64,000 bases of DNA. Source: Candidatus Heimdallarchaeota archaeon. GTDB taxonomy: Archaea; Asgardarchaeota; Heimdallarchaeia; Heimdallarchaeales; Heimdallarchaeaceae. The translations under genes and the position numbers were made by a program. Under the pieces are notes generated by a model. That model saw only the letters and a list, made by a program, of their open reading frames with translations, was not told the DNA's origin and did not search any database. This document shows, in pieces, positions 16,872-19,835 of this stretch; the first letter of the stretch is position 1; each line of letters opens with the position of its first letter. The stretch is taken from NCBI GenBank assembly GCA_021399345.1, contig JAAFKI010000051.1, positions 1 to 64,000 of the forward strand, in the 5' to 3' direction.

Positions 16872-16967
16872 TCAGCTGCGTTTGAATTCTACTCTGAATC
16901 CACCTTTAGGATATTTCCAATCAACGCTACCATGAGGACACACAATACGACAGATCCCGCACTCAAG
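16872..16967 (-). pseudogene. fixX: Orphan 3' fragment of fixX (last 31 codons plus stop)
   Basis: Translates [31 protein letters not shown]; 79/96 nt identical to 19524-19619 by manual alignment; no in-frame ATG before the upstream stop. Confidence 0.93.
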
Positions 16968-19523
16968 TAATAATTTCAGAAAATCATTTAAAGATGAATA
17001 TATATTATTATACAGTATTACTGGGTGTGAGATGTTGTGAGTGATAGTAATTTAATAAAGCTAATCAATCCTATATTGATTGCAAGAGTTCCACGCGAAG
17101 AATATACTGAGAATCTCACACTACAGAATGTACTTTCAGCAAAAAAAGACAATATGAACAAATTTTGGGATGAAAAGATAGCATTAATTATCACATTTAT
17201 TGTTTCCATTGGATTCTTGATTCCTGCTGCGATTTATGATATGGTGAGTGTTTTTAGATCAAGTGAAAATTATTCTCAAATTTTACTTCTACCTCTAAAC
17301 ACACAATTTAAGTTGTTTTTATATTTTTCATTTCAGTTTGGTATCATTCTGTTTATAGCTCTAATTTTCTATTCAGCATTAAGATATTACTTGATTCAGG
17401 TTAATTATAGTCCAACAAATTACAAGTACAACTGCATAAAAAATGAGGATTTGCTATATATTCTACTCAATGAAGAAAATTGCTTAGATGAAATTATATT
17501 TTCAAAATGGAAAACTGCTGCTAATTTTGATGAGAATCATCAAACTGAAGAAAATCTACATTCAGGTGAAAGAGAGTATTTTCTTTTCTTTGCTAAAGAT
17601 TACTGGAACTGTCAATTTGCAATTCAGCCTGAATTTAAAGAAAAACTAAGTATGATTTGTATACCTTTCTTTTTAATGTCAACAATCATAATATTGGTAC
17701 CTTATATTCAAAAGATCAAGGGTAACTATTCATTTATAATAGTTCTAATAATTCCAGTTTTCGTTGTAATTGTCGTTCTTATATTATTATTAATTGAGAA
17801 AAAAATTAAGAAACCTTTAGGTTATATAGTCACAGTTCTAATTCTATTAGCTTTCATTGTAAATAATATAATGGTTGTTTTGTTTATTATATATACGAAT
17901 ATCTTTGCCTTTACAACCAATACTAAAAAACCTGGTTTTATAGCATCCTATTATAATATCTCTCTTTTTGCATTTTATTTCTATTCGTTTCTTGTCATAT
18001 TAAGCGTTTTAGGTTCTCTAGTTGATAGGAAAAAACAGATTCGCAGTTTTAAGCAACATTACAAAAAACAAATTATACGTATTGAAAAAACGGTTGCTCA
18101 AACAACTAATGATAATGGAGACTTAAATGGTAAATTAATCTTATTTTATAAAAAACAGAGTGTTTTTGAGAAGGCTTCGATTCTCCCATTAAATTTTGGA
18201 AAATACATTGTAGGTTTTACAACATATCTAGGTTTTATAAGTCTTATTTCAGCTATTTTTACTTACATTCTGAATACACTTTGAACCCATTCAAGTACAA
18301 AAATGATTTTTTAGCTTTAAATATGGAATACCGGTTATAGAATCAGGCGTTTTACTCAAAATAAATTGAATGATCTTTATGGAAGAGAAACAAGAAAAAC
18401 CATTTCAATGCGGAATATGTAAACGTAGATTTAAGCGTAAAGATTACCTAAAAAGGCATATGATGGTACATACCAAGGAGAAACCATTTCTTTGTGATAC
18501 CTGTGGCAAAGCTTTTTCTCGAAAAACTTCTTTAAAAAATCACTTCAGAGTGCATACAGGAGAGAAACCTTTCATATGTAAAGAGTGTGGAAAGAAATTT
18601 TCAGATAAAGGTAATCTATCAAAACATCTGAGATTGCATACGGGAGAGAAACCATATATATGCCATTTTTGTAATAAGGAATTTTCGAGATCTCATCATT
18701 TACAGTCTCATCTTAGAATTCATACTAATGAAAAACCATTTAGTTGTACATATTGTGACAAGTCATTTTCTAGAGAATTTATTCTGAAAAACCATTTGAA
18801 AATACATACAAACCAAAAACCATATGAATGTAATTTTTGTGAGAAAAAATTTCGTCAACTAGCTCATTTAGAAAGTCACCTTCGGATACATACTGGTGAG
18901 AAACCTTACTATTGTTCTGAATGTGGTAAGTCATTCAGAACCTCATCCTCCCTTATTAGCCATAAAAGAACTCATTCTGGAGAAAAACCATACAAGTGTA
19001 CAAGATGTGGAAAGGAATTTTCGAGATTATTTACCTTAAAATATCATATCAAAAATAATTCGTGTTGGTATAACAAAAAATCGTCTATTCAATGGGAAAA
19101 TTTGTGCAAAGATATAGCAGAAATTCTCTTTGAAGAAAAAAAATGGAAATGGAAACCTAAAATTCTTACCCCAGAATTGGTTAATAGAAAGTGGATAATT
19201 CCTGAAATCTTAGTATTCTCACAAAATGACAAAAAGGAGCTAATTGATGCAAAAAGATCCATTGATTCTATAAGAAAAAAAGATTTAGATGTATATCCAT
19301 TGTATGCTGATATTATACATTTCTGGTGTTTAGTTCCAACAAAAAGGAGAATTCAATCTAGTAATGTTAAAGTGTTAGATTCAGATGATATAATTGGTCT
19401 TCTAAAAAAGAAAGTATCTGAACAGAATTCTGAGAGAATAGACAAAATAATTTCACAAATTGAAATGTTGAAAAAAGGAATGATTATTAAAGATCAGACA
19501 ATTTTGTCTGACTTCAACGAAAA
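16968..19523. mobile_element. Putative genomic islet between duplicated fixX 3' ends (no integrase present)
   Basis: Flanked by diverged direct repeats 16872-16967 and 19524-19619; two cargo genes on the strand opposite to the flanking genes. Confidence 0.6.
17037..18284 (+). CDS. Hypothetical polytopic membrane protein
   Basis: 415-aa ORF with about 7 hydrophobic segments; very AT-rich. Confidence 0.7.
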   Translation: MSDSNLIKLINPILIARVPREEYTENLTLQNVLSAKKDNMNKFWDEKIALIITFIVSIGFLIPAAIYDMVSVFRSSENYSQILLLPLNTQFKLFLYFSFQFGIILFIALIFYSALRYYLIQVNYSPTNYKYNCIKNEDLLYILLNEENCLDEIIFSKWKTAANFDENHQTEENLHSGEREYFLFFAKDYWNCQFAIQPEFKEKLSMICIPFFLMSTIIILVPYIQKIKGNYSFIIVLIIPVFVVIVVLILLLIEKKIKKPLGYIVTVLILLAFIVNNIMVVLFIIYTNIFAFTTNTKKPGFIASYYNISLFAFYFYSFLVILSVLGSLVDRKKQIRSFKQHYKKQIIRIEKTVAQTTNDNGDLNGKLILFYKKQSVFEKASILPLNFGKYIVGFTTYLGFISLISAIFTYILNTL

Positions 19524-19527
19524 CTAA
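18370..19527 (+). CDS. Tandem Kruppel-type C2H2 zinc-finger protein (7 C2H2 + 1 C2HC) with putative C-terminal PD-(D/E)xK nuclease-like domain
   Basis: Eight 28-aa repeats with linkers TKEKP/TGEKP/TGEKP/TNEKP/TNQKP/TGEKP/SGEKP; C-terminal QWE..IIPEILV..LIDAKRS; ends QTILSDF. Confidence 0.9.
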   Translation: MIFMEEKQEKPFQCGICKRRFKRKDYLKRHMMVHTKEKPFLCDTCGKAFSRKTSLKNHFRVHTGEKPFICKECGKKFSDKGNLSKHLRLHTGEKPYICHFCNKEFSRSHHLQSHLRIHTNEKPFSCTYCDKSFSREFILKNHLKIHTNQKPYECNFCEKKFRQLAHLESHLRIHTGEKPYYCSECGKSFRTSSSLISHKRTHSGEKPYKCTRCGKEFSRLFTLKYHIKNNSCWYNKKSSIQWENLCKDIAEILFEEKKWKWKPKILTPELVNRKWIIPEILVFSQNDKKELIDAKRSIDSIRKKDLDVYPLYADIIHFWCLVPTKRRIQSSNVKVLDSDDIIGLLKKKVSEQNSERIDKIISQIEMLKKGMIIKDQTILSDFNEN

Positions 19528-19835
19528 CTATGTTTAAATTCTACTCCAAATCCACCTTTAGGATATTTCCAGTCAACGCTACCATGAGGACAAATAATGC
19601 GACATGTGGCACACTCAAGACACGCAACATAATCGAAGACAACGGGTCCTTCTGCTTCCTCTTCTTCTGTAAATTTGTAGCAATCTGCTGGGCATCCATA
19701 TACACAATCATAAGTTGTACACTTTGCCTTACAGATTTCTGGATTTATCTCAATATGTGCATAATTTTGATCGGTTGTGATTTTTGTTAAATCTAGTTTT
19801 TCCTCTAGTGTTTTGGGTTTGTTTGATTTGCTCAT
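19524..19835 (-). CDS. fixX: Ferredoxin-like protein FixX
   Basis: [27 protein letters not shown]; directly downstream of fixC. Confidence 0.93.
   Translation of the reverse strand: [103 protein letters not shown]

Follow-up and report, generated by a model that had tools for sequence, protein, structure and literature searches.

A predicted zinc-finger nuclease beside a duplicated fixX 3′ end in a Heimdallarchaeota genome: a candidate homing cassette with a replacement gene end

In a stretch of 64,000 nucleotides from a Candidatus Heimdallarchaeota archaeon (positions 1 to 64,000 of contig JAAFKI010000051.1, assembly GCA_021399345.1; called the window here), the gene fixX is followed by an islet that encodes a zinc-finger (ZF) protein, ZF385, and that is bracketed by two diverged copies of the fixX 3′ end. 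Probably, this islet is a mobile cassette of the homing-endonuclease type that brings a replacement gene end with it, cleavage by ZF385 being predicted. The anatomy of the islet, the empty sites in relatives, the fold and motifs of the protein, the match of its finger code to the site and the recurrence of the arrangement at three loci are seen directly. A first-pass annotation, made from the letters alone, had proposed that the cassette arrived by recombination at fixX, and this interpretation is supported in its main points; from fold and target we infer that ZF385 is a nuclease that drove its own insertion. All positions are window coordinates. The window is contig C175 of a metagenome-assembled genome (MAG) of 3.27 Mb and 33% GC, labeled G000, and it was compared with other Candidatus Heimdallarchaeota MAGs, labeled G002-G024.

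The gene order at the locus is etfB-etfA-hyp232-fixC-fixX, then a radical-SAM gene and genes for a 294-aa protein and a RING-finger protein. Between 14 and 22 kb, the sole long direct repeat pairs 16880-16967 with 19532-19619 (88 nt, 86%), and all the remaining repeat families are 30 nt or shorter. The repeat is as it had been read by hand: 16872-16967 and 19524-19619 are identical at 79 of 96 nucleotides, with 17 differing sites and no indels, and both copies, read on the minus strand, give the last 31 FixX codons and a stop. Six codons (3, 7, 16, 24, 28 and 31) differ synonymously and five by replacement (G/A, I/T, V/I, R/G and R/H), and the stop is TGA in the fragment and TAG in the copy in use. 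The stops of the ZF gene (18370-19527, plus strand) and of fixX (19524-19835, minus strand) do overlap by 4 nt. It is to be noted that the change from TGA to TAG is private to the fixX copy in use and that, read from the other strand, it creates the TAA stop with which the ZF gene ends. Thus, the nuclease gene and the replacement gene end lie packed against each other. The cassette measures 2556 nt, or 2652 nt if one 96-nt repeat copy is counted, and contains only two open reading frames (ORFs), one for a membrane protein and the other for ZF385; its GC content is 26-29% vs 31-36% in the flanks. Pfam searches of the two ORFs gave no integrase, transposase or tyrosine/serine recombinase domain, and no methyltransferase domain either. 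For the 415-aa cargo protein there was no Pfam match, no match in 24 genomes of the same genus and no convincing Atlas neighbor. Candidate terminal inverted repeats around the ZF gene or the cassette, 71-75% complementary over about 31 nt in AT-rich DNA, were judged not significant. An assembly artefact or chimera is ruled out by copies that are 18% diverged on one contig, and by an architecture that recurs in independent MAGs, both at fixX (G014) and, in several MAGs, at two other loci.

What does the locus look like without the cassette? An empty site in which fixX is directly followed by the radical-SAM gene had been anticipated, and fixC-fixX followed by radical SAM is found in the loci of ten relatives (G009, G018, G011, G024, G013, G006, G015, G002, G008 and one of two loci in G014, G014a), where about 80-340 nt separate the two genes. 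The cassette is missing from this spacer in all 12 relatives examined, of which the second G014 locus (G014b) has a decayed counterpart, and the proteins encoded on either side share 88-98% identity with their window counterparts in the five nearest relatives. In nucleotide alignment the junction on the fragment side is sharp: homology to the empty sites starts exactly at 16967 (CTTGAG) and continues via the native spacer, 16796-16871, into the radical-SAM gene. On the other side, homology of the copy in use to the empty sites stops at its stop codon, 19524. The junctions being fixed by this alignment, the insertion consists of 16968-19523 plus one 96-nt copy, 2652 nt in total. A full second fix paralog was not found at the site. 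In G021 the spacer (L076:3354-4496) holds an unrelated 380-aa protein with asparagine-rich repeats resembling a parallel beta-helix and a C-terminal membrane anchor, and shows no fixX duplication; therefore, the spot between fixX and radical SAM is variable for other reasons too.

The two copies look as if both had been functional alleles at some time, as the first-pass annotation supposed, since 11 of the 17 differences lie at third codon positions and only five are private to the fragment. Two others are private to the copy in use, and the rest are shared with one relative or another, nine of these shared ones falling at third positions. The five private changes of the fragment include three that hit otherwise invariant residues, G>R and H>R among them, and there is no stop and no indel. 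On the terminal branch of G000, unique third-position changes affect 2.4-5.9% of codons in fixC, the radical-SAM gene, hyp294 and the fixX body. This rate predicts about four neutral changes in a 96-nt pseudogene, as observed, and at most two in a constrained copy, not twelve. The differences in shared states thus exceed what the terminal branch can give, which means that two alleles, each under selection and already distinct, were brought together, and this excess argues against a simple duplication at insertion. Strict long target duplication, in which one resident 96-nt target was copied by staggered breaks and fill-in and the copies diverged in place, is therefore unlikely. It would account for two copies of exactly equal extent, and it is documented for restriction-enzyme units, notably those of Type IIS, which share the layout of separate binding and cleavage domains (PMC2853133). 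The shared-state differences, mostly at third positions, are far beyond the terminal branch of G000, however; published repeats are nearly identical, for example 44/46 (PMC2853133); and at a second cassette, that of the PIG-L gene described below, the fragment is near-identical to the empty alleles while the working end is 25% diverged. Which of the two fixX copies is native? The 3′ ends at empty sites had been expected to be closer to the displaced copy, and at fixX they are not clearly so: G009 matches both copies at 86 of 96 positions, becoming slightly nearer to the fragment once private changes are removed, G018 and G011 are closer to the intact gene, and the fragment is favored by a narrow margin in G024 and G013. 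In the fixX 3′ segment, diversity from -28 to +20 around the boundary reaches 0.13-0.15, the highest in 1.8 kb, but as a recombination scar this peak is suggestive only, comparable peaks occurring elsewhere.

ZF385 begins with eight C2H2 fingers, the last of them C2HC, joined mostly by TGEKP-type linkers (Pfam PF00096, E=7.4e-45 in eight stretches; PF13465, E=7e-63). In Pfam the protein as a whole gives zinc-finger families only, and its residues 228-385 match nothing in Pfam or in PDB sequence searches; none of the classical homing families (LAGLIDADG, GIY-YIG, HNH, His-Cys box) was found in it. An AlphaFold2 (AF2) model of this C-terminal domain (pLDDT 89.5, pTM 0.82) has the order alpha-beta-beta-beta-alpha-beta (H9-26, E31-34, E53-56, E62-68, H76-84, E88-93). 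The significant Foldseek matches (E <= 0.001) and the top VIA-align matches are restriction-endonuclease-fold proteins, among them Bax1, EcoO109I, R2 RLE, Can2/Card1, BspD6I, McrC, AF1548 (Z 9.4, root-mean-square deviation 2.8, 106 residues) and FokI (Z 6.3, about 10% identity). An alignment of 28 family members conserves W-E in the first helix and P-[DE] and [DE]-x-K on consecutive strands, and it also keeps K-D, Y-P, F-W and a C-terminal Q-x-x-L-x-x-[FY] tail; columns P51, K68, K77, D78 and P83 are invariant, and W15/E16 stand at 90% or more. The corresponding catalytic signature of ZF385, E243, P278-E279 and D293-A-K295, is intact and conserved in the 28 aligned members. By fold and motif the domain is a member of the PD-(D/E)xK superfamily, and nuclease activity is predicted for it; binding of PCNA by the PIP-like tail is suggested by its motif. 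An exhaustive profile-free search of 1.84 billion representatives found only 38 relatives of the domain. Within the genus 20 of 24 genomes carry the domain, as do 26 of 400 in the phylum, and its fusion partners in the family are C2H2 arrays, tandem zinc-ribbon repeats or helix-turn-helix (HTH) repeats, all of them modular DNA-binding arrays. No close ortholog of ZF385, none above 41% identity, was found anywhere searched. A word-based homolog search was dominated by vertebrate KRAB-ZNFs and gave no closer relative; in that search the finger array (18400-19065) shared short stretches of 50-63% identity with vertebrate zinc-finger proteins of the KRAB type, which is explained by its TGEKP-linked consensus.

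If ZF385 is a nuclease, where would it bind? In the canonical finger code, helix positions -1, 3 and 6 read the 3′, middle and 5′ base of a triplet, respectively, and the N-terminal finger sits on the 3′ triplet. With a code drawn from Zif268 and the Sera-Uranga table, run both as an extended table and as a minimal table of 12 rules, the eight helices predict the 24-nt target NTGNTTNGAATGNGGGACATGGNG, in which 19 bases are specified. Out of about 128,000 positions on both strands of the window, the best is 19600-19623 on the minus strand, four bases of which lie outside the repeat and twenty inside, and the homologous stretch of the fragment, 16948-16971, is the third-best site; the minimal table leaves the top site unchanged. 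With either table, 11 of 12 loci from relatives have their top match at the homologous position in fixX. The cassette-free alleles of G013, G024 and G021 reach 18/19 (26.5 bits), 17/19 (24.7) and 17/19 (23.7), and that of G009 19.0 bits, vs 14/19 (17.2 bits) for the resident copy in use and 13/19 (13.4) for the fragment; the empty alleles of G018, G011 and G008 are as low as the resident one. Over the 6.5 million positions of the whole G000 genome no score exceeds 19.1, and the resident fixX site takes sixth place. The genome-wide best match (C169:87493-87516, 19.1 bits) falls on the Cys motif of a distant fixX-like ferredoxin paralog, and the best 24 matches in about 1 Mb of loci all belong to fixX or to its ferredoxin paralog. 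When finger order was permuted, none of 300 random orders reached the real score in G013, G024 or G009, and the reversed finger order and the paralog's matrix gave background values only. That the ZF site is related to fixX, without which the first-pass interpretation would fail, is thus borne out computationally: the predicted target is fixX at the repeat boundary, and it is strong in several empty alleles and weak in both resident copies.

The predicted site encodes the conserved cluster motif C-L-E-C-G-T-C and is thus constrained in the way that targets favored by homing enzymes are. Relative to the good alleles, the copy in use has changed the triplets of fingers 3 and 4 from GGG or GGA to GCC (Gly to Ala), and the same codons vary in G018 (GCC) and G011 (TCC); two of the five private changes of the fragment (ACA to ATC) lie inside the predicted site. 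Might ZF385 simply be a DNA-binding regulator of the fix/etf locus, with a nuclease-like domain that is inactive or otherwise used? C2H2 arrays typically belong to transcription factors and the predicted site is within the neighboring operon, but the catalytic E, P-E and D-x-K are intact across the family, the site falls within coding sequence and coincides exactly with the insertion boundary, and the gene is missing from all relatives with the same operon, so that we consider a mere regulator highly improbable.

Duplicated gene ends beside ZF homologs, which had been proposed as a check, were found in further places: at rpS11, at a PIG-L gene and in a decayed fixX cassette of G014. G000 encodes three further members of the family. 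In its rpS11 cassette (C110, L086:1134-3534), rpS11 is followed by an eight-finger paralog (1256-2434), 41% identical to ZF385, and by a YaaC-like protein (2525-3445). The repeat copies of about 66 nt (L086 1134-1199 and 3473-3534) share a 30-nt identical core, and the distal copy consists of the last ~29 nt of the gene and a T-rich trailer of ~35 nt, after which come the native downstream genes. The same structure is present in G009, G006 and G013, and G018 (L121) is empty, its rpS11 being directly followed by a thioesterase gene and its trailer matching the distal copy. Orthologs of the nuclease in this cassette are only 62-78% identical while the flanking proteins are 92-100% identical, and the cargo varies by genome. 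The code-predicted site of the rpS11 paralog is the top match beside the repeat boundary in 4 of 10 loci, with modest scores. In these genomes, ribosomal protein S11 itself (L086:407-1162) has a Lys/Glu-rich N-terminal extension of about 120 residues, with KPE-type tandem repeats at the upstream end of the contig.

The PIG-L cassette (G009 C143, L172:6752-9260; G000 C55/C123, L087:8266-9287 and L179) places a zinc-ribbon-array member between a truncated 5′ copy of the PIG-L deacetylase gene, together with its promoter, and the intact gene. The nuclease member has six or seven tandem zinc-ribbon repeats of the W-x-x-x-K-N type; its gene carries an internal stop in G009 and is interrupted by a contig break in G000. 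Ten genomes have the empty site. Here, the expectation that the displaced copy should be nearer to the empty alleles holds cleanly: the fragment is 94-95% identical to them vs 74-75% for the gene end in use, and in this case the replacement end clearly came in with the element. The empty allele of G018 is native-like upstream and cassette-like downstream, and looks like a scar of excision or conversion. A fourth, more distant family member is encoded by G000 C64 (L169:2133-3860); it has 576 aa, a domain match of E=9e-17 and a 240-nt internal tandem repeat.

The third case is contig C170 of G014, where an intact fixX, a convergent remnant of the nuclease domain, an ORF for a 164-aa membrane protein and a second fixX 3′ fragment follow in order. 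This is the layout of the window in a far more decayed state: the nuclease remnant (E=1.6e-13) has two in-frame stops, and the fixX fragment has a frameshift and stops. No homology was found between the membrane cargo proteins of G000 and G014. The bin of G014 contains two different fixC-fixX contigs (C170 and C252; L077, L057), one with the decayed cassette and the other empty, and these represent either a mixture of strains or two operons. Was the arrangement then ancestral and lost in relatives, the fragment being left over from a second fix paralog or an earlier duplication? The decayed cassette at the same site in G014, the FixX of which is only 74% identical, does make the association old, and recombination between direct repeats would delete a cassette cleanly, a scar of which the G018 PIG-L allele resembles. 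Such an ancestry would nevertheless require many independent precise losses, even in the nearest relatives with their flanking proteins 88-98% identical, and it is hard to reconcile with a G000 fragment that shows five private changes and neither stop nor indel vs the frameshift and stops of the G014 fragment, or with the lack of a complete second fix paralog at the site; we regard it as very unlikely. Many genomes nearer to G000 being empty, two insertions or a re-invasion give a more economical account than a single old insertion that was later lost, precisely, many times over.

Another possibility is that a recombinase acting in trans placed the cassette, so that the gene-end repeats are att sites and ZF385 is cargo, either a defense nuclease or a regulator. 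Integrative elements commonly target and restore gene 3′ ends, the rpS11 repeats have their 30-nt identical core, and the cargo differs between cassettes, all of which would suit this explanation. It does not readily explain why three target genes are each paired with a different member of the family, why the code of ZF385 matches the junction itself, or how the fixX copies could serve as att sites when they have diverged by 18% and nowhere agree over more than about 23 nt in a row; no cassette contains an integrase. Placement in trans therefore seems improbable to us.

How would a homing cassette of this kind move? ZF385 may be taken as a natural zinc-finger nuclease made of an eight-finger array, a PD-(D/E)xK cleavage domain and a PCNA-box-like tail; cleavage, the cut position, the repair route and the role of PCNA are what we infer for it. 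The array would recognize about 24 bp of fixX where the duplicated segment starts. By analogy with engineered zinc-finger nucleases (ZFNs), the cleavage domain would be placed at the bound strand's 5′ end, only a few bp from the boundary. The nuclease may thus break cassette-free fixX alleles near this boundary, and the break would be repaired against a cassette-bearing copy by ordinary double-strand-break repair or, alternatively, an excised circle might be integrated by a single crossover through the 96-nt homology. The last 31 codons of the incoming cassette would then join the gene body in frame, while the native 3′ end would be displaced 2.65 kb downstream and decay there. The copy in use may escape recutting through the substitutions in the triplets of fingers 3 and 4 (GGG/GGA to GCC), and the fragment may do so because the junction cuts it short and it has mutated further. 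If the repeats recombined with each other, the cassette would be excised again. We give an even chance to the wider idea that Heimdall archaea harbor a family of natural modular zinc-finger nucleases acting as homing endonucleases, with each paralog aimed at the end of a different conserved gene. Targeting would be by a canonical-code C2H2 array or, in other members, by zinc-ribbon or HTH arrays, spread would be as cassettes with a recoded gene end, and PCNA may participate via the C-terminal box.

Several points weigh against a homing cassette driven by ZF385. The finger code is that of eukaryotic proteins, and the extended table was settled on once the sequence had been looked at; under the minimal table the resident site drops to rank 124 in the genome, and even the best empty alleles (18.1-19.0 bits) do no more than equal the genome-wide extremes. 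Binding and cleavage by ZF385 are predictions, and an inverted second half-site for a FokI-like dimer was not found. The resident allele (17.2 bits) is barely below the empty allele of G009 (19.0), so that immunity from recutting is not established. Judged by alignment, neither fixX copy appears clearly native, both standing at 86/96 to G009, and with no ZF385 ortholog above 41% identity there is no known donor and no second active fixX cassette. As for the rpS11 paralog, its predicted site is weak and comes out on top in just 4 of 10 loci. The rpS11 cassette itself is carried by 20 of the 24 genomes in the genus, which long vertical retention could explain as well.

Among described systems, the nearest is found in fungal mitochondria, where endonuclease ORFs called mORFs sit at gene 3′ ends and provide a foreign C-terminus while the native one is left downstream, as in atp6 of Allomyces macrogynus and in atp6, atp9, cox2 and nad3 of Glomus; the Allomyces enzyme has been shown biochemically to drive mORF mobility (PMC3630166). 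Like mORFs, the cassettes have a free-standing endonuclease gene at the end of a conserved host gene, a diverged in-frame replacement end with the native end downstream as an unused duplicate, close relatives with an empty site, and, at the PIG-L cassette, a native fragment nearer to the relatives' allele than the incoming end is. Unlike mORFs, the fixX cassette resides in an archaeal chromosome and not in an organelle genome, and its endonuclease combines a C2H2 array with a PD-(D/E)xK domain where mORFs have LAGLIDADG or GIY-YIG enzymes. The nuclease gene and the host gene converge and are not fused in phase, there are extra cargo genes, and one family member replaces a 5′ end with its promoter; mobility and cleavage are predicted here.

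Restriction-modification (RM) units inserted with long target duplication have near-identical repeats, and the survey that described them retained no archaeal case (PMC2853133). With these units the cassettes share a restriction-fold gene, direct repeats longer than 30 bp that align to the single-copy target of a relative, the absence of transposase and integrase, an insert GC below that of the surroundings, and repeats that often overlap the 3′ end of a gene. They differ in having no methyltransferase, in repeats that are 14-22% diverged, and in recognition by a long array and not by short-site restriction specificity. In comparison with engineered ZFNs, which combine a C2H2 array with the FokI domain, ZF385 likewise has an N-terminal TGEKP-linked array, a C-terminal restriction-fold domain and a genome-unique target predicted by the canonical code, but it is a natural protein whose likeness to FokI is at the level of fold only (Z 6.3, about 10% identity), and it has a very short linker between array and domain, a PIP-like tail and no evident paired inverted half-site. 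In the protein of the R2 non-long-terminal-repeat (non-LTR) retrotransposon, too, C2H2 fingers direct the PD-(D/E)xK nuclease of a selfish element to one conserved gene, whereas here there is no reverse transcriptase and the insertion is DNA-based, with a replacement gene end. Target selectors of the TniQ type in Asgard Tn7 elements are reported to carry C2H2 fingers, without nuclease fusion (10.1101/2025.07.27.667033). In the collection of papers searched, a natural C2H2-PD-(D/E)xK homing nuclease was not found described, which is not proof of novelty.

Zinc-finger nucleases are known as an engineered tool. What would a natural one mean? A finger code that is blind to orientation and locus picks the insertion point of the element itself out of megabases, which offers a testable case of whether eukaryote-type C2H2 recognition rules hold in Asgard archaea. 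The case also bears on how a selfish cassette can enter a chromosome without integrase or transposase, and on how the host gene can survive this, namely by a recoded spare end handed over with the insertion. It would extend homing of the mORF style from fungal mitochondria to archaeal chromosomes, and would link that style to the unexplained insertions of restriction genes with long target duplication. If our reading is true, polydactyl TGEKP-linked arrays with predictable specificity exist in Asgard archaea within selfish elements, offering compact natural nucleases of modular, readable specificity, and the variation of the target codons in fixX (GGG/GGA, GCC, TCC) may record an arms race or the scars of past invasions.

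The features of the locus are collected in Table 1. Apart from these, a 232-aa protein without a Pfam family is encoded at 21183-21881, between etfA and fixC, and its position is kept genus-wide (56-94% identity).

Table 1. Features at the fixX cassette of the window, with the basis of each assignment.
Feature	Position	Strand	Basis or remark
Radical SAM gene	15521-16795	-	Pfam PF04055; native downstream neighbor of fixX, ~80 nt after fixX in relatives
Native spacer between fixX and radical SAM	16796-16871		Column-for-column alignment with the spacer of empty-site genomes
Displaced fixX 3′ fragment, 31 codons and TGA	16872-16967	-	Runs on into the native downstream flank
Degenerate copy of the predicted ZF385 target	16948-16971	-	Cut by the cassette junction 16967/16968; position weight matrix score 13.4-13.6
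Inserted cassette proper, 2556 nt	16968-19523	+	Missing from the spacer of relatives; low GC
Cargo, 415-aa multi-pass membrane protein	17037-18284	+	No known family
ZF385, eight C2H2 fingers and PD-(D/E)xK domain	18370-19527	+	PF00096, AF2 model, fold matches
Zinc-finger array, residues 11-232	18400-19065	+	Eight fingers parsed, the last C2HC
Predicted nuclease domain, residues 236-385	19075-19524	+	Conserved E243, P278-E279, D293-x-K295
C-terminal PIP-like motif (Q..L..F)	19495-19515	+	Tail kept across the family alignment; putative PCNA binding
fixX 3′ end in use	19524-19619	-	In frame with the gene body; TAG overlaps the TAA of ZF385
Predicted ZF385 recognition site (resident, weakened allele)	19600-19623	-	Straddles the 5′ boundary of the repeat, 19619/19620
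Intact fixX, 103 aa	19524-19835	-	PF05187; 91-95% identical to closest relatives

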